DNA from: an uncultured Pseudomonadota bacterium
GTDB taxonomy: Bacteria; Myxococcota_A; Polyangia; Fen-1088
Length of the DNA: 64,000 nt
Direction of reading: 5' to 3'
NCBI GenBank assembly: GCA_963847705.1
Contig: CAWKBC010000008.1
Location: forward strand, 71,593 to 135,592
A program made the translations under genes and the position numbers. The stretch's first letter is position 1; each line of letters opens with the position of its first letter. Under the pieces are notes generated by a model. The model saw nothing but the letters and a program-made list of their open reading frames with translations. It did not search any database and had not been told where the DNA came from. Below are positions 4,048 to 40,357 of the stretch, in pieces.

Positions 4048-5676
4048 CTAGTGGCCGCTGCTCATCCGGGTGAACGCCCAGAAGAGCGTCCCCGAGAGCA
4101 GGATCGAAACCGGCAGCGTGAGCACCCACGCCATCAGCAGGTTGCGAACCGTCCCCCACTGCAGACCGGTCTTGTTCGCGGCCATCGTGCCGGCGACACC
4201 GGACGAGAGCACGTGGGTGGTGCTCACGGGGAGGCCGAAGGCGTCCGCGGCCCCGATGGTCACCATGGCGGTGAGCTCGGCGGCGGCGCCCTGCGCGTAG
4301 GTGAGGTGATCCTTGCCGATCTTCTCACCGACGGTGACGACGATCCGCTTCCAGCCGATCATCGTCCCCAGACCGAGCGCGATGGCGACCGCCACCTTGA
4401 CCCAGGTCGGGATGAACTTGGTCGCCTTGTCGATGTGCTTCTTGTAGTTCTTCAGCACGTCCGCATCGGCCGGTGCGATGGCCGGCAGGTGCGACTTGTC
4501 CATCATCCGCAGCGCCTCGCCGATGAGGTACATGTCGTTGCGGAAGTTGCGCGTCTTGGTCGCGGGGACGTTGCGCAGCTCCTTGTAGATCGACATGTCG
4601 CTGCCGACCGCGGTGACCAGCTGCTTCAGCCCGGGGAGCGTCGTCGGCGCGAGCGCGCGGGTGCGGATGTAAGTGGTGACCTCTTCGCGCCCGTCGCCGG
4701 CGACGGTGACGCTCGAATCCGCGTAGTGTCCGATCGTACCGGCCGCCATGGCGGAGACGGCGATGAAGTCCTGCGACTCCTTGGCCGAGACGGCGTGGTT
4801 GAGCGCGTAGGCCGTGGGGACGGTGCCGATCAGGATGAGCATGATGAGCCCCATCCCCTTCTGCCCGTCGTTCGATCCGTGCGCGAAGCTGACACCCGTG
4901 CAGGTGAGGAGCAGCAGGCCCCGGATCCAGAACGGCGGCGGCGCTTCACCCACCGGCGCTGCGTAGAGCTCCTTGTTCTTGATGACCTTGCGCATGGTGA
5001 GCAACAGGCCCCCGGCGCAGACGAAGCCGACCAGCGGCGAGATCAGCAGGGACTTGCCGATGTTCGAGGCCTGGTGCCAGTCGACGCCGCTCGTCGCGGT
5101 GTGGACCGCCATGAACTGGTTGGCGAGGCCGACGCCGATGACCGAGCCGATCAACGTGTGCGAGCTCGACGACGGCAGGCCGAAGTACCAGGTCCCGAGG
5201 TTCCAGATGATCGCCGCAGTCAGGAGGGCGAACACCATCGCGAACCCCGTGCCGCCGCCCACTTGCAGGATGAGCTCGACCGGGAGCAGCGAGATGATCC
5301 CGAACGCCACGGTGCCGGTCGAGACGAGGACGCCGATGAAGTTCCACATCCCCGACCAGACCACCGCGATCTGCGGGGCCAGCGTGTGCGTGTAGATGAC
5401 GGTGGCGACGGCGTTGGCCGTGTCGTGAAACCCGTTCACGAACTCGAAGCCCAGCGCCACCAGGAGCGCGATCCCCAGCAGGATGAAGGGCATCGCCGAG
5501 GTGGGGTGCACGTCCGCGAGGTCGGAGAGGAGCTGCGAGCCCGCGTAGCCGATCCCGACGGTGAGCGCGATCCCGAAGATCGCCATCCCGAGCTTGCCAG
5601 GGCCACCCGCCAGCTTGGCGTGGATGGCGGAAGCGTGAGGTTTCGGCTGTTCCAGTGCGGCGGCGTCTGTGGTCAT
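4048..5676 (-). CDS. pitA: Inorganic phosphate transporter (PiT/PHO4 family)
   Basis: Both PiT signatures (GFHDTANAVAT and FAHGSNDGQKGMG), LPSSSSHTLIG and LPVSTTH; multiple TM helices. Confidence 0.95.
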   Translation of the reverse strand: MTTDAAALEQPKPHASAIHAKLAGGPGKLGMAIFGIALTVGIGYAGSQLLSDLADVHPTSAMPFILLGIALLVALGFEFVNGFHDTANAVATVIYTHTLAPQIAVVWSGMWNFIGVLVSTGTVAFGIISLLPVELILQVGGGTGFAMVFALLTAAIIWNLGTWYFGLPSSSSHTLIGSVIGVGLANQFMAVHTATSGVDWHQASNIGKSLLISPLVGFVCAGGLLLTMRKVIKNKELYAAPVGEAPPPFWIRGLLLLTCTGVSFAHGSNDGQKGMGLIMLILIGTVPTAYALNHAVSAKESQDFIAVSAMAAGTIGHYADSSVTVAGDGREEVTTYIRTRALAPTTLPGLKQLVTAVGSDMSIYKELRNVPATKTRNFRNDMYLIGEALRMMDKSHLPAIAPADADVLKNYKKHIDKATKFIPTWVKVAVAIALGLGTMIGWKRIVVTVGEKIGKDHLTYAQGAAAELTAMVTIGAADAFGLPVSTTHVLSSGVAGTMAANKTGLQWGTVRNLLMAWVLTLPVSILLSGTLFWAFTRMSSGH

Positions 5677-5685
5677 AGGGCGCGC

Positions 5686-5740
5686 ACAATACCCATCCGA
5701 CCGTGCCGTGCCTGCGACTCTCCGGTGACGATTTCGCAAC
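5686..5740 (-). promoter_or_regulatory. Candidate Pho-box-like direct repeats plus -10 element upstream of pitA
   Basis: Minus-strand pentamers GTTGC, GTCAC, GTCGC, GGCAC at exact 11-nt periodicity (5740, 5729, 5718, 5707), followed 11 nt later by TATTGT (5691-5686). The repeats are degenerate. Confidence 0.3.
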
Positions 5741-5902
5741 GGCGCGGTTCGCCCTGGGGCGGCTCAGATTTCTGAGTCGAGGACGCGCCGGAACAGCAGC
5801 CTGGACGGCAGAAAGCGGCGAAATTACTATGGTTCGGAATGACCTCCGGTTGCGCAGACTGGCTTCGAGGTTGGCGCAGCAATTGCTCCAAGCTGACGGA
5901 CG

Positions 5903-7156
5903 ATGCCTCCGGTGATTGACGGGCGTCACAGCTCGCTGCCAGTCCTGCCCCGCGCGCCCCGCGCCCTGCCGGCGCAGCGCCACCTCCCGCTGGCAGCCGA
6001 GGCGCGCGACATCGACCGCGCCTGGCGACCGATCTACGCGGTCTGGGAGCTCACGCTCAAGTGCGACCTCGCCTGCGGACACTGCGGCTCGCGCGCCGGA
6101 CGCACGCGCCCGGACGAGCTGGACACCGCCGCCTGTCTCGATCTGGTCGCGCAGATGGCCGCGCTCGGCGTCCTCGAGGTGACCGTGATCGGCGGCGAGG
6201 CCTATCTGCACGCCGACTGGTTGACGATCGTGCGCGCCATCCGCGACGCTGGCATGCACTGTTCAATGACGACCGGCGGACGCGGCGTCACCCCGGAGCT
6301 GGCGCGCGCCGGCGCCGAAGCGGGACTGCGGAACGCCAGCGTCTCGATCGACGGCAACGAGGCGACGCACGATCGGCTGCGCGGCGTGACCGGGGCGTAC
6401 CGCGCGGCGCTGGCCGCCGCCGGTCACCTGAAGGCGGCCGGGGTCATCCTCTCGGTCAACACCCAGATCAACCGGCTGTCGATGCGCGAGCTCCCCGACG
6501 TGCTGGAGACGATCATCGCCCTGGGGGCCCGCGCCTGGCAGATCCAGCTCACCGTCGCGATGGGGCGCGCGGGGGACGCGCCCGACCTGCTGCTGCAGCC
6601 CGAGGATCTGCTGGAGCTCTTCCCGCTGCTGGCGACGCTGAAGGCGCGCTGCGACCAGGCGGGGGTGGCGCTCTGGCCGGGGAACAACATCGGCTACTTC
6701 GGCCCCTACGAATCGGTCCTGCGGGGCGGCCTGCAGCGCGGGCACATGGCCTCGTGCGGGGCTGGATGCACCACGCTCGGCATCGAGGCCAACGGCGCCA
6801 TCAAGGGCTGCCCCTCCCTGCACAGCGTCCCCTGGACGGGCGGCAACGTCCGCGACGCCAGCCTGCAGGACATCTGGGAGCGATCGGCGCCGCTCCGCTA
6901 CATGCGCGACCGCACCGCCGACGATCTGTGGGGCTACTGCCGCACCTGCTACTACGCGGACGTCTGCCGCGCGGGCTGCACCTGGACGGGTTTCAGTCTG
7001 TTCGGCAAGCCGGGCAACAATCCTCTCTGTCACCACCGCGCGCTGGAGATGCGGCGGCAGGGAAAGCGCGAGCGCCTGGTCCAGGTCGAAGCGCCGCCCG
7101 GCGCCCCGTTCGATCACGGCAAGTTCGAGATCATCGTCGAGGAGATCACCCCATGA
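5903..7156 (+). CDS. Radical SAM/SPASM peptide maturase, resembling the Y_X(10)_GDL-associated/splicease-type group
   Basis: VWELTLKCDLACGHCGSRAG (CxxxCxxC), IGGEAYL, WQIQLTVAMG, GNNIGYFGPYE; SPASM cysteines CGAG...GCPSL...CRTCYYADVCRAGC...NNPLCHHR. Confidence 0.9.
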   Translation: MPPVIDGRHSSLPVLPRAPRALPAQRHLPLAAEARDIDRAWRPIYAVWELTLKCDLACGHCGSRAGRTRPDELDTAACLDLVAQMAALGVLEVTVIGGEAYLHADWLTIVRAIRDAGMHCSMTTGGRGVTPELARAGAEAGLRNASVSIDGNEATHDRLRGVTGAYRAALAAAGHLKAAGVILSVNTQINRLSMRELPDVLETIIALGARAWQIQLTVAMGRAGDAPDLLLQPEDLLELFPLLATLKARCDQAGVALWPGNNIGYFGPYESVLRGGLQRGHMASCGAGCTTLGIEANGAIKGCPSLHSVPWTGGNVRDASLQDIWERSAPLRYMRDRTADDLWGYCRTCYYADVCRAGCTWTGFSLFGKPGNNPLCHHRALEMRRQGKRERLVQVEAPPGAPFDHGKFEIIVEEITP

Positions 7157-7653
7157 GCCACCTGGCACCCTGCCCTGCCTGCAACCGCCACGTCGACGTG
7201 GACGAGAGCGCCTGTCCATTCTGCGCGGCCATGCTCGCGCCTTCGTTCCGCGCGACGCGCCCCCTCGGGCCGCCATCTCGCCGGCTGGGGCGGGCGGCCT
7301 TGATGACGGCGGGCGCTGCGCTGATGGGCGCCGCGGCGTGCAGCGCCAGCGACGCCATCGCTATCGAAACGAAGGACGCCACCCCGTCGTACGACGGCTC
7401 GCGCGTGGTGGCGGCGTATGGCGGGCCGGTCCTGCTCGGAACGGGCGGAACCAGCGGCGAAGGCGGCACTGGCGGCACCGGCAACATCGGCAGCATTGGA
7501 TTGGGCGGCGCCGGTGGCGTCACCGACGCCGGCAGCCAGGGAGCGACCGACGCTGCGACCGACGCCGCCCACGCGCGCGACGCCAGCCAGGATCGGACGT
7601 TCATCGCCATCTACGGCGCACCGTTCGCCGCTGACGAGGAGCCGAGCTCGTAG
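7153..7653 (+). CDS. Putative rSAM substrate: Zn-ribbon leader, lipoprotein signal, Gly-rich body with two xYGxP motifs (166 aa)
   Basis: ATGA overlap with the rSAM stop. MSHLAPCPACNRHV...CPFC (C7/C10/C21/C24); SRRLGRAALMTAGAALMGAAAC63; VVAAYGGP (Y89) and FIAIYGAP (Y154). The ORF track shows it only as the tail of ORF 6061..7653. Confidence 0.8.
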   Translation: MSHLAPCPACNRHVDVDESACPFCAAMLAPSFRATRPLGPPSRRLGRAALMTAGAALMGAAACSASDAIAIETKDATPSYDGSRVVAAYGGPVLLGTGGTSGEGGTGGTGNIGSIGLGGAGGVTDAGSQGATDAATDAAHARDASQDRTFIAIYGAPFAADEEPSS

Positions 7654-11181: not shown

Positions 11182-12666
11182 TCAGGGGCAGGCGTTCAGC
11201 GTCGCCATCTGCGCGGTGTAGAGGTTCTGCATCGGGGTCTTCATCGTCGGCCAGGCGGTCATCGGGTTGCCGCCGTTGTCGTCGTTGGTCTCGTAGTTCC
11301 AGGCCCAGGCGCCGTTGTAACCGTTGCTATAGAGGTTGGTGTACAGGTCGGAGCCGTTCACGCCGTCGGTGGTGACGGCCCAGAACTCGCCCATCACCAG
11401 GTTCTTGTCGAGCTTCCAGTTGGACGCCGGGTGGGTGAAGCAGGAGACGCCCGAGCCGTTCGAGGTGTAGTAGTGGACCTCGTAGAAGTCGAGCGTGCCG
11501 TTGGCTTTGCCGCCCGCGGCCGTGAGGGCGGCGTCCGAGTAGAGGTTGGAAAAGCCGCTGGCGGTCGAGCAGGTGTTGAAGGTCTGCGCCCCGCTCGTCA
11601 CGCGGGCGTTGGGATCGGTCGAATGGATCGCGGACGCGAACACGTTGACCGTCTTCTGGATGTACATCTGGTCGACCTCGGTCCCGCCGTTGGCCGCGGT
11701 CCACCCATGCTGGGTGGTCATCCCCTCGGGCTCGTTGAAGATCTCGTACGAGTAGACGCCCGGATTCCCCTTCAACGCCGTGACCAGAGGCACGAGCACG
11801 TTGGTCACGTAGGCGTTGCGGTTGGCGTCGACGGTGAGGAGATTCTGGTTCTGCGTGCGCAGGGTGGTCGTGATGTTCTCGCCCCCCTGCAGCATGTCGA
11901 ACGACCAGAGGCTGATGTTGAGCGCCACGCCCGCGGTGTGGGCGGCGTTGGCCAGGCTCACGACGTCGTTGAGCGCGCCCGAGGTGAGCGGCATGGCCAT
12001 CCCGCTCGAGTCGTAGCCGGGCGTCACCGTGCCGTTGGTGTGAAACCACCAGCGGATCACCCGCCCGCCCACCGAGGCGCTGTTGGTGAAGATCGTATTG
12101 AACGTCGCCAGATTGGGATTGGGGATGTCGTTGGCGAAGTTCACCCAGGCGACGTTCAGGCCGCTGGCGAACTTGCAGATCGCCGGGCTGCCAGCGCCGC
12201 CCGCTCCCGTGGTCCCCCCGGTCGCAGGCGTGCCGCCGGTGCCGGTCGCCCCGGCCTTGCCACCCGTGCCGGTCGCCCCGCCCTTGCCGCCGGCCCCGGC
12301 GGTCGCGGAGGCTCCGCCGGTCCCGATCGTCCCGCCAGTGGCGCTGGTGCCGCCGGTGCCGGTCGTGCCGCCGGTCGCCGTCGCGCCGCCGGTGCCGGTC
12401 GTGCCGCCGGTGCCGGTCGTGCCGCCGGTCGCCGTCGTGCCCCCGGTGCCCGGGGTGCCGCCGGTGGCAACGTTGCCGCCCGTGGCAATCGAACCGCCCG
12501 TGGCGGTGGTCCCACCGGTGCCGGTGGCCCCCCCCCTGGCCCCACTGTTCCCACCCTCGCTGGAAGCACCGCCAGACCCGCCCCCGGCGTCATCGGTGCT
12601 CTCGGGCGAGGCGCAGGCAGCGAGGGAGAGGGTCAACAACAGGGGGAGAACACGGGCAGGCTTCAT
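11182..12666 (-). CDS. GH5-like glycoside hydrolase lipoprotein (mannanase/cellulase-like) with Gly/Thr linker
   Basis: Lipobox LSLAAC; long GGTTGTGG linker; acid/base motif IFNEPEG, EVHYY, nucleophile VMGEF, GAWAW. Confidence 0.8.
   Translation of the reverse strand: MKPARVLPLLLTLSLAACASPESTDDAGGGSGGASSEGGNSGARGGATGTGGTTATGGSIATGGNVATGGTPGTGGTTATGGTTGTGGTTGTGGATATGGTTGTGGTSATGGTIGTGGASATAGAGGKGGATGTGGKAGATGTGGTPATGGTTGAGGAGSPAICKFASGLNVAWVNFANDIPNPNLATFNTIFTNSASVGGRVIRWWFHTNGTVTPGYDSSGMAMPLTSGALNDVVSLANAAHTAGVALNISLWSFDMLQGGENITTTLRTQNQNLLTVDANRNAYVTNVLVPLVTALKGNPGVYSYEIFNEPEGMTTQHGWTAANGGTEVDQMYIQKTVNVFASAIHSTDPNARVTSGAQTFNTCSTASGFSNLYSDAALTAAGGKANGTLDFYEVHYYTSNGSGVSCFTHPASNWKLDKNLVMGEFWAVTTDGVNGSDLYTNLYSNGYNGAWAWNYETNDDNGGNPMTAWPTMKTPMQNLYTAQMATLNACP
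12190..12590 (-). repeat. Low-complexity coding repeat (about 18-bp units encoding GGTTGT/GGTTAT)
   Basis: Repeated gccgccggtgccggtcgt-like units encoding the linker of the GH5 lipoprotein. Confidence 0.8.
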
Positions 12667-12813
12667 GATTCCTCCGATAAGGAAGGGCGACGGGGCAAGG
12701 GGCAACGGGGGTCACCGGCGCCAAGGGCGCCCCCGCTCGCGGACCTTCACGGAATCGCACAGACGCGAAAACAACTCGAACGACTGGAAGTGCCGCGGCT
12801 GGCCTGATTCGGC

Positions 12814-38728: not shown

Positions 38729-40357
38729 CTACCGGCACCAGACCGCCACGTCAGCGCCCTGGGAGGTGAACAGGCGATCGCCCGAGGGGTTGGAGATCGC
38801 GCTCGGCTGGGTCCCCGGCGTGGCCCCGAACTGGCGCAGCAAGGCGCCGGTGGCGGTCGCCGTCACGGTGAGCGCGTCGTAATTCGTGGCGTGATCGTGG
38901 ATGATGTGCATCGAGGAGACGCTCACCGTGCCGTCGCTGGAGGTCACGCTCTGGCCCTCGCCGGCAGGTCCGGGCGTCCCCAGCGACGCCAGCGCCGGGG
39001 CGCTGGTGAGGTCGGCCGGCGGCCCACAGAGCTGCGCGTCGTCGGACTCCCGCCAGAAGTGAAACAGCGCAGTCGAATCGCCGCTGCCAGCGGCGAAGCG
39101 TCCGTCCCCGGACCAGGTCGCAGCGGTCAGCGGATAGCTGGAGGTCTTGACGATCGCGCCCGTGGCCGGGTTCCACCAGGAGGTCGTCCCCGACGCCGAG
39201 CCGACCAGCTCATTGCCGGGCGAGACGCCCAGGAAGGTCACGCCCGCGGGGACGGTGAACTGGCCGACGGAATGCAGGTCGGCGGCGCCGACGACGGCGA
39301 CGGTGGTGCCGGTCTCGGTGAAGAGTTGCGTTCCGTCGCGCGAAAAGCCGATCACCGTGCCGGCGAAGCTGGGGTCGGAGGCCAGCTGTGCCCCGCTGGT
39401 CGCGTCGAAGAGGACCAGGCCGGCGGCAAATCCCTGCGCACCCGCCTCGGCCGTCGTCGCCCGCGCCACGGTACGCCCGTCCGGGGAGATGGCGTAGCCG
39501 AGCAGGCCGCGGCTGTAGAAATTGAAGAGGACGACCGCGGTCCCGGTGGCGGGATCGCGCAGGTCGAGCCGGGTGCTGGTGGGCGAATTACCGATCTGAT
39601 AGTCGGTCTCGACCAAGAGCTTCGCGTCGCCGGCGGTGAAGCGGATCAGCGGGATTCCGCCCCCCGCGGCGGCGACCGGCAGCCAGCTGGCGGTCGTCCC
39701 GCTGCGGAGATCGATCATCATCGTCCCCAGCGAGGTCGCCAGCCGGCGGCCGTCCGAAGAGAACGCCAGCGCCGAGGCCGTCCCGTTGACGCCCGAAACG
39801 GCCGGTGCAGCGAAGCTGCGCTGGAACGTCCCGTCGTGTGCGCTCCAGAGCGTGACCTCGCCCGTCTCCGCCGACTCTGTCGCCAGCGTCGCGCCGTCGG
39901 GCGAAAAGGCGACCGCGTCGATCGCTCCCAGCGGCGCTCCGAGCTGCGCGATCTCGGTCCAGGTGTCGGTGGCGAGGAGTCGCAAGGTCCCCGCCCCGGT
40001 CCGCGCCGCCAGCCGGTCGCCGGTCGGCGAGAGCAGCGTCTGCCAGCCTGTTTCGGGGCCGAGCGTCTGGCAGCGGACGTAGCTCTGCCCGGCGGCGACC
40101 GGCCCGAGGACGATCGTGGAGCTCAAGCTCAGCGGCCCGCAGGCGGCGCCGGGCGCTCCCCCCTGGCCACCGCCGCCGGTTGCACCATCGGGTGCGCCTC
40201 CCGTGCCACCGATGCTGCCTGCGTCCGGGGGTGGGGCCGCGATTGGCCCGCCCTGGTCTCTGCCTGCGCGACCACGCAAGAGCTGCTCCACAAAACCGTC
40301 GTCACATCCCAGCCCCGCCATCACCAAGATCCCGAGAAGCAGGCAGGCCACGCGCAT
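38729..40357 (-). CDS. WD40/beta-propeller lipoprotein
   Basis: Lipobox GLGC; repeats AVAFSPDGATLAT, LAFSSDGRRLAT, AISPDGRTVA, FSRDGTQLF, WSGDGRFAA. Confidence 0.8.
   Translation of the reverse strand: MRVACLLLGILVMAGLGCDDGFVEQLLRGRAGRDQGGPIAAPPPDAGSIGGTGGAPDGATGGGGQGGAPGAACGPLSLSSTIVLGPVAAGQSYVRCQTLGPETGWQTLLSPTGDRLAARTGAGTLRLLATDTWTEIAQLGAPLGAIDAVAFSPDGATLATESAETGEVTLWSAHDGTFQRSFAAPAVSGVNGTASALAFSSDGRRLATSLGTMMIDLRSGTTASWLPVAAAGGGIPLIRFTAGDAKLLVETDYQIGNSPTSTRLDLRDPATGTAVVLFNFYSRGLLGYAISPDGRTVARATTAEAGAQGFAAGLVLFDATSGAQLASDPSFAGTVIGFSRDGTQLFTETGTTVAVVGAADLHSVGQFTVPAGVTFLGVSPGNELVGSASGTTSWWNPATGAIVKTSSYPLTAATWSGDGRFAAGSGDSTALFHFWRESDDAQLCGPPADLTSAPALASLGTPGPAGEGQSVTSSDGTVSVSSMHIIHDHATNYDALTVTATATGALLRQFGATPGTQPSAISNPSGDRLFTSQGADVAVWCR

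Follow-up and report, generated by a model that had tools for sequence, protein, structure and literature searches.

What does a radical S-adenosylmethionine (rSAM) enzyme act on when the gene overlapping its own encodes what looks like a lipoprotein? The question is raised by two genes in a 64,000-nucleotide stretch of contig CAWKBC010000008.1 from an uncultured bacterium (referred to below as the window), one encoding an rSAM/SPASM enzyme and the other, a 166-residue open reading frame (ORF), overlapping its end. A first-pass annotation, made from the sequence alone, had proposed that the enzyme is a splicease, which excises tyramine at XYG sites and leaves alpha-keto-beta-amides, and that the ORF is its substrate. 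Passages of PMC11414181 describe XYG excision, binary systems without a Y protein and an activating role for the leader or the Y protein; protease inhibition dependent on the keto-amide is reported in part of PMC11626197, and a passage of PMC9811515 calls the native products and roles of spliceotides elusive. The analysis presented here established that the pair is a real, widespread two-gene system. What appears to be new is a variant of the spliceotide systems in which a zinc ribbon and a lipoprotein-like signal are carried by the substrate; the chemistry itself is probably not new.

A conserved ribbon-led ORF with YG cores

The pair is laid out as the annotation had described it, the TGA of the enzyme gene and the ATG of the ORF overlapping as ATGA, and a mechanical ORF listing makes no separate call of the ORF, merging it into a 530-residue frame that starts at 6061. 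Translation of the two genes is probably coupled. The product reads, from its N-terminus, as a CxxC-x10-CxxC ribbon (C7, C10, C21 and C24), a hydrophobic signal ending in Cys63 and a low-complexity body with two cores, AAYGGP at Y89 and AIYGAP at Y154, in agreement with the annotation; the third tyrosine, Y80 (SYD), is not part of a YG.

A total of 228 relatives were confirmed, and the best 80 loci were examined. A ribbon protein, detected with a leader profile, was present in 72 of the 80; in the remaining eight, the contig breaks off within 700 bases on one side. In these 72 loci, its start codon overlapped the enzyme gene as ATGA (32), lay at most 250 bases downstream (31), was found elsewhere on the same strand (7) or stood on the opposite strand (2), and one to four substrate copies were encoded per locus. 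The 123 substrate proteins included 115 that were complete and single, and the 113 of them with a lipobox-like Cys formed the counted set. In the bodies of these proteins, glycine followed 307 of the 320 tyrosines at a glycine content of 25%, and Pro occupied position +3 in 248 of the 307 YG sites. The control set, 178 other lipoprotein-like ORFs of this genome (14% Gly), gave YG at 78 of 916 tyrosines and YGxP at 2, so that chance is excluded as the source of the YG selectivity. At least one YG was found in 110 of the 113 bodies, the last at a median of 9 residues from the end; the other three comprised one apparent frameshift and two YS/YA variants. Most bodies (101/113) carried two to six near-identical cores, and in the low-complexity spacers D-[AGST]-[GSA] triplets were found at 669 of 1115 Asp residues. 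The X residue was Leu (97 sites), Ala (49), Pro (34), Val (32), Ile (23), Met (22), Arg (16), Glu (12), Asp (9) or another residue (13). Core 2 of the window's ORF aligned, in a nearly identical context, with the LYG core of the Nif11 precursor of a type I-like system. An adjacent ribosomal substrate with a conserved XYG, which is one criterion of a spliceotide system, is present here, and the ribbon, the lipobox-like Cys and YGxP, whose conservation beside homologous enzymes the annotation had put forward as a check, were kept.

Several loci show other arrangements. In L030-L037, L040, L047 and L058, a substrate array is flanked by two splicease paralogues. Enzymes of 35-41% identity stand beside ribbon-less lipoproteins in L095, L096, L098 and L099; one of these neighbours is a Cys/Asp-repeat protein with many YG/YA sites, one has YD for YG, and L099 holds three enzymes in tandem. 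In L144 (genome G066), YG cores lie, as judged by eye, on either side of an apparently folded C-terminal domain beside the enzyme, which we take to be TonB-C/AgmX-like. L121 (G060) has an enzyme-adjacent ORF with a ribbon and LYGVP and with no hydrophobic signal or lipobox, likely a cytoplasmic substrate; as L121 keeps both elements without the signal, ribbon and YG form the constant pair. The search for longer or fused substrates returned 20 matches of 196-263 residues and no enzyme fusions, which is weak evidence owing to its word filter.

The enzyme groups with annotated splicease relatives

The top NCBIfam matches of the enzyme were TIGR04103 ('nif11-class peptide radical SAM maturase 3', presumably the same family as IPR026482) with 495 bits and TIGR03913 with 481 bits, the next family reaching 150. 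The comparison with TIGRFAM and Pfam suggested by the annotation thus put the splicease families on top, but the enzyme missed both curated cut-offs (725 and 591.75, respectively), and the TIGR03913 match spans model positions 12-391 of 477 only. PlpX is placed in IPR026482 by a passage of a review (PMC11002830). The rSAM motif CxxxCxxC (C54/C58/C61), the SPASM cysteines 285, 303, 346, 349, 355, 359 and 376, and E270 were invariant in 100 aligned homologues. As an annotated stand-in for type I spliceotide systems we used a Nostoc plasmid locus, which encodes a TIGR04103 member (853 bits), a Nif11 precursor with a terminal LYG core and a 71-residue product whose gene overlaps the enzyme stop. 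The window's enzyme was 52% identical to the Nostoc member over 381 residues, with SPASM and C-terminal motifs in common. In a tree of 48 rows (42 picked myxococcal enzymes including the window's, four annotated references and two SPASM outgroups of the same genome), 24 close homologues formed one group (86/98), and the type I-like and GDL enzymes shared an open fork with the window's group, away from the outgroups (90/95, with long outgroup branches). These data support placing the enzyme among the spliceases as represented by the annotated stand-ins; an rSAM/SPASM, PlpX-like enzyme, a further criterion of spliceotide systems, is at hand. A sequence search of the PDB revealed no solved splicease and gave four distant matches only.

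In L140 (G103), a YG core closes the C-terminal tail of the enzyme itself, and this nine-residue ending is found again in a downstream ORF, possibly through duplication or as a self-substrate. In the window, 12 of 13 bases are common to 7100-7112 (the enzyme's conserved C-terminal G-A-P-F) and 7615-7627 (G-A-P-F of core 2); chance and a pseudo-substrate segment are both possible explanations.

The zinc ribbon as a predicted docking module

Residues C7, C10, R12, H13, C21, F23 and C24 were invariant in 90 leaders, these being the residues demanded by the seed pattern. In the leader model, residues 1-30 had a pLDDT of about 90 and a helix was formed at 47-62. The likeness of the ribbon to RanBP2/NZF was weak (Z 2.2-2.5, rmsd 1.4-1.7 A over 29 residues; Foldseek E 0.28 or worse). 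The complex of enzyme and leader, modelled with Zn and three 4Fe-4S clusters, scored 0.86 and the best of three controls 0.25, which supports the annotation's proposal that the ribbon is the enzyme-recognition leader; 116 of 157 solved complexes and 2 of 215 mismatched pairs attained the docking mark. The runs agreed in at least 28% of contacts, with a partner pLDDT of at least 61. The confident interface joined ribbon residues 1-2, 4, 6, 10-13 and 22 to enzyme residues 266-271, 279, 281 and 350-354, and the signal helix was absent from it.

The enzyme side of this predicted patch was compared in 144 enzymes. Y351 was present in all 118 enzymes that lie beside, or are fused to, a His-bearing ribbon. 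At 350-351 the Nostoc enzyme, which has no ribbon, reads KF, and AF or TF occurs in four enzymes with GF-for-RH ribbons. Among 19 enzymes without a detected ribbon, YY was kept in nine (probably the eight cut loci and L140) and not in ten. The docking patch tracks the ribbon type, the GDL, Nostoc and GF lineages each standing at about 50% identity. Two GDL-type enzymes have a similar C4 ribbon fused at the C-terminus, and a Tropicibacter enzyme has one at the N-terminus (profile probabilities 86, 61 and 95%); TIGR03913 was the commonest NCBIfam match of the leaders themselves (21/90, weak, best E 0.0017). The Y-like protein showed no likeness to the leader profile (probability 0.1%). Judged from the models, the ribbon is probably the enzyme-docking element. 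The Tropicibacter enzyme adjoins genes for trypsin-like and M23 peptidases.

A lipoprotein-like signal closes the leader

The first seed pattern had required a lipobox; in the recount by a ribbon-only pattern, 116 of 122 matches continued into an uncharged h-region closed by [GASN]C at narrow spacing. Of the 37 ribbon ORFs found phylum-wide, 35 likewise closed the h-region with a small residue and Cys. The window's ORF shows the basic n-region, uncharged h-region and small-residue lipobox with Cys by which a lipoprotein is recognized, its AAAC being non-canonical at -3; Ala is also the commonest residue at -3 in the control lipoprotein-like ORFs of this genome (64/178). The n-regions contained RxxR in 110, RR in 34 and the Tat-type RRxF[LAF] in none of 116 cases, the Tat consensus being S/T-R-R-x-F-L-K. 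The annotation had described an RR-containing signal with a lipobox: R43-R44 and Cys63 are indeed present in the window's ORF, but RR is not a feature of the family and the Tat reading did not stand. Tat export was discounted on these motif counts; because the twin-Arg is not conserved and RxxR is, export by Sec is likely.

The body of the substrate is 25% Gly and almost devoid of large hydrophobic residues, so that post-translational Sec export after modification would be the simplest order of events. Lgt and signal peptidase II constitute the established lipoprotein pathway, in which the ribbon would be removed with the signal peptide, and no dedicated peptidase or transporter would therefore be needed. 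Besides the pair, no neighbour family occurred in more than about 11 of 110 loci, and the recurrent neighbours reflected clade-level synteny in at most 10 loci; no peptidase, transporter or RRE gene recurred, as the annotation had remarked for the window. The sequence features make lipid-anchored retention of the product likely.

In more distant clades (L086, L087, L088, L094, L141, L146 and L089), YG comes immediately after the lipobox Cys (C-Y-G), which would make X the lipid-anchoring Cys itself. In L086-L088 and L094, GF replaces RH in the ribbon and the substrate lies on the opposite strand.

Distribution and orphan paralogues

The closest named relatives are Polyangia (Myxococcota) genomes. 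In an even draw of 201 genomes of the phylum, 72 contained a splicease-like enzyme and none contained one above the TIGR03913 cut-off. Among the best loci of this draw (the window's excluded), 27 of 29 had a ribbon ORF within 1.5 kb, giving 37 ORFs with YG at 75 of 82 tyrosines; at least one of these loci repeats a locus of the 80-locus set. The genus was compared in 19 genomes, which are kin and several of which are incomplete. All seven genomes with an enzyme at least 75% identical had leaders at E 3e-14 or better, and two of these seven enzymes carried a stop or frameshift. Nine genomes had no enzyme; eight of them gave no strong leader match, and in one the contig ended within the leader. 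A genome with only half of the enzyme had no leader, and two had only a 51% enzyme and a divergent ribbon. In L104 (G016), the enzyme stops after about residue 256 and no substrate was found in that 95%-complete genome, possibly reflecting joint decay. Weak matches to the leader profile in enzyme-less genomes (L106-L109, L115 and L116; those in G011 and G012 were left out) proved to be unrelated ribbon proteins.

The system exceeds the window, as relatives have one to four substrates per locus and the window's own genome encodes three substrates alongside a single such enzyme. Two orphan paralogues (L081:5062-5394 and 5549-5860 (-), corresponding to G000:C7 ~39060-39860) lie far from any splicease, with AYG and PYG just past the Cys and a truncated third copy between them. 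Orphan substrates, one to four each, were also found in the relatives G001, G003, G014 and G017. Several orphan paralogues have an additional C-x-G-P-C-x-G-H after the ribbon, a possible second metal site. In a search of the genome for ribbon-less substrates, the core matrix gave three other ORFs, none in a substrate-like setting.

Comparison with known systems

Type I systems (PlpX/PlpY/PlpA3 and PcpX/Y/A; TIGR04103) resemble the window's pair in enzyme sequence (52% identity to the annotated member), in XYG cores in like context and in having a small gene that overlaps the enzyme stop. They differ in possessing a Nif11 leader, a double-Gly site and a Y protein, none of which was found here: the ORF had no Nif11 match, the enzyme scored below the family cut-off, and no third gene recurred in 110 loci. 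The overlapping small gene here encodes the substrate itself, with a C4 ribbon for recognition, a lipoprotein-like signal and several cores on a tether. The binary systems (type II RhaX/RcsX/RasX and types III-V, as cited) likewise have two components and no Y protein, and the N-terminus of their substrate provides the enzyme-binding element; that element is a Y-like helix, whereas here it is a modelled zinc ribbon ahead of a signal peptide. According to part of the PMC11414181 supplement, Y proteins were aligned with the leaders of types II, III and V, not IV; that the window's system is a type IV system is a guess.

The TIGR03913 GDL-motif maturases, which act with DUF1843 peptides, are 47-53% identical to the window's enzyme; their peptides contain PYG sites, and the same Y350-Y351 patch and a C4 ribbon of similar type recur. 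In these systems the C-terminus of the enzyme bears the ribbon (in cis), and in the window's pair the substrate does (in trans); the GDL-type substrates are DUF1843 peptides of 56-70 residues without a signal. The window's enzyme fell short of the TIGR03913 cut-off, and its ORF gave no DUF1843 match while the positive controls did. The TIGR04133/TIGR04134 systems also pair an rSAM/SPASM gene with a putative lipoprotein and set a precedent for lipoprotein substrates. To our knowledge, that pair has no ribbon. The enzyme reached 139.5 bits (cut-off 425), the ORF gave no TIGR04134 match, the Bacteroides control was positive, and nothing in the window's genome exceeded the cut-off; a weak TIGR04134 match on contig C1 was rejected as a substrate, having no YG. 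The two-gene system works like a binary splicease pair and lies outside type I, TIGR03913 and TIGR04133/TIGR04134 by the family tests.

A literature search, with most subscription journals outside its reach, found no account of ribbon-led lipoprotein substrates. According to a review passage, the survey of Scott et al. recorded YG-rich PlpX-like systems in 189 genera, and with that coverage these myxobacterial loci may well fall in it; the system may already be classified there (Scott et al. 2022, Chem 8:2659). The passage of PMC7159879 concerns other rSAM systems.

Proposed mechanism and alternatives

We propose that the enzyme docks in the cytoplasm on the predicted N-terminal zinc ribbon of the substrate and that a tyramine unit is likely excised at A88-Y89-G and I153-Y154-G, leaving alpha-keto-beta-Ala and alpha-keto-beta-Ile. 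The modified, unfolded protein would then be exported by Sec and lipidated at Cys63, and signal peptidase II would cut off the ribbon-bearing signal. The product would be a lipid-tethered flexible chain displaying two keto-amides. The ribbon would do what the Y protein or leader helix does in the described systems, to be discarded with the signal peptide, and both orphan paralogues on contig C7 are likely further substrates of this enzyme. Tyramine excision at XYG appears likely from the sequence comparisons. As the steps are not independent, docking, excision and lipid-anchored retention were also judged together, and we hold the combination to be somewhat better than an even bet. The weakest step is the purpose: covalent-reversible inhibition of Ser/Cys proteases of the envelope, either the cell's own lytic enzymes or those of competitors or prey, is the purpose we favour most, and only tentatively.

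A number of observations weigh against this reading. The enzyme scored under both curated cut-offs, the backbone of the tree is not resolved, and the tree and identity comparisons used annotated stand-ins in place of PlpX, PcpX and RhaX. In the close homologues L043, L045 and L102, the sole core is I-Y-S-A or I-Y-A-A, a test by nature of whether Gly is required. Pro (34), Arg, Glu and Asp are found among the X residues, and the single DYG site reported in part of PMC11626197 stayed unmodified. The docking score is a model's confidence, and its calibration is only rough here, our own alignments and ligands being outside the calibrated set. The covariation at Y351 is confounded by kinship and comes from few independent lineages. 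C4 ribbons are generic, and other ribbon families matched the leaders weakly as well (GntX 12/90). The strict lipobox [LVI][ASTVI][GAS]C fits 36 of 116 family members, the other 80 being non-canonical, and a folded 45-residue n-region ahead of a lipoprotein signal is unusual.

Four other explanations were considered. A shadow frame, or a neighbour without relation to the enzyme, might be suspected from the ORF's low-complexity sequence in 70% GC DNA, from the absence of any Pfam or NCBIfam family above cut-off and from the lack of RNA evidence from the window's own strain; the sole RNA run (word share 0.05) gave contigs from 85-99% alike relatives that covered the enzyme and not the substrate, and is uninformative. 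This explanation is refuted by the retention of the ORF in 72 of 80 loci, some of which have it in another position or on the opposite strand, and by its GC3 of 0.86 and ribosome-binding-like site; ESM Atlas clusters of 54-111 members at 0.96, in which Myxococcota is the commonest phylum, also speak against it. The hydrophobic helix could instead be an uncleaved signal-anchor or an enzyme-activating helix, with the ribbon-bearing spliced protein staying at the inner membrane or in the cytoplasm and Cys63 unlipidated. The non-canonical lipoboxes, the long n-region, the unusually conserved R44, R47 and A49 and the signal-less member L121 would fit this, as would the described leaders, which activate via a helix according to part of PMC11414181. 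We consider it improbable, given that a small residue and Cys end the h-region at narrow spacing in 116/122 and 35/37 cases and that the helix lies outside the confident interface and bears no likeness to the Y-like protein.

The YG sites might also undergo some other chemistry, for example a Tyr cross-link or an unrejoined side-chain cleavage product in place of the alpha-keto-beta-amide. The separate clade of the enzyme (86/98), its scores below both family cut-offs, the YS/YA variants and the Pro or charged X residues leave room for such a product; against it stand the 52% identity and common SPASM and C-terminal motifs with the TIGR04103 member, the nearly identical core context in that member's precursor and, in a passage of PMC10849128, the confirmation of 27 splicease-substrate pairs chosen by YG-rich neighbours, so that we regard it as rather unlikely. 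Finally, the anchored spliced chain may be an intermediate, a cassette precursor that housekeeping proteases of the envelope would cut to yield short keto-amide peptides as the true products. The two to six near-identical cores of 101/113 bodies, the D-[AGST]-[GSA] triplets as potential cut sites (669/1115 Asp) and the action of described spliceotides as short peptides (part of PMC11626197) would suit such a precursor, yet no peptidase or transporter recurs near the pair, the Gly/Thr/Ala tether resembles that of an ordinary GH5 lipoprotein in the window, and L144 joins YG cores to what appears by eye to be a folded C-terminal domain. A cassette precursor is unlikely on balance, and the lipid-anchored display remains our preferred reading.

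Features of the locus and its surroundings

The coordinates of the pair and of the ribbon-fused enzymes are collected in Table 1. A scan of the locus for promoters and terminators gave nothing above chance, and no duplication between the two cores was found at the DNA level. Genes for a PHO4 transporter, a HAD hydrolase and a Kir channel neighbour the pair in the window. At 11182-12705 (-), the window encodes a GH5-domain lipoprotein with a long Gly/Thr tether resembling the substrate body.

Table 1. Coordinates of the enzyme-substrate pair in the window and of ribbon-fused enzymes in other loci.
Feature	Position	Strand	Description
rSAM/SPASM enzyme gene, splicease-like	5903..7156	+	417 aa; Radical_SAM and SPASM domains
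Enzyme residues 266-271 (FGPYES), one half of the predicted ribbon-docking patch	6698..6715	+	modelled interface
Enzyme residues 350-354 (YYADV), second half of the predicted docking patch	6950..6964	+	modelled interface
GAGGAG, ribosome-binding-like, within the enzyme 3' end	7139..7144	+	8 nt before the ATGA overlap
Substrate ORF, 166 aa	7153..7653	+	ribbon, signal, Cys63, low-complexity body with two YGxP cores
C4 zinc ribbon, C7-x2-C10-x-R12-H13-x7-C21-P-F-C24	7171..7224	+	predicted enzyme-docking module
R44-x-x-R47 n-region, hydrophobic h-region, lipobox AAAC63	7282..7341	+	predicted signal peptidase II signal
Core 1, A-A-Y89-G-G-P, X = Ala88	7411..7428	+	family-matrix score 18.8, about the lower quartile
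Core 2, A-I-Y154-G-A-P, X = Ile153	7606..7623	+	12 residues from the C-terminus; score 23.1, higher than the family median
Ribbon-fused enzymes	L083:2893-4443, L085:2938-4362, L084:2701-4323		GDL-type (C-terminal) and Tropicibacter (N-terminal)

Significance

If the proposed mechanism is correct, a lipid-anchored, protease-free version of spliceotide biosynthesis exists in about one third of the sampled Myxococcota genomes, its product would stay on the cell and be open to membrane proteomics, and beta-amino-acid backbones would occur in ordinary envelope lipoproteins. The splice-tag toolbox would be widened by a 30-residue enzyme-recruiting ribbon, by up to six sites per chain and by natural cores with Ala, Ile, Val, Pro, Arg, Glu and Asp at X. 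A broader picture, which we put forward with considerable reserve, is that myxobacteria may coat their envelope, phylum-wide, with genetically encoded, multivalent keto-amide warheads. In it, a ribbon in the lipoprotein signal would recruit and switch on the splicease, coupling splicing to export; the ribbon would have moved between enzyme (GDL, in cis) and substrate (in trans), and in the C-Y-G sub-lineage the anchor Cys would itself become the alpha-keto-beta residue.

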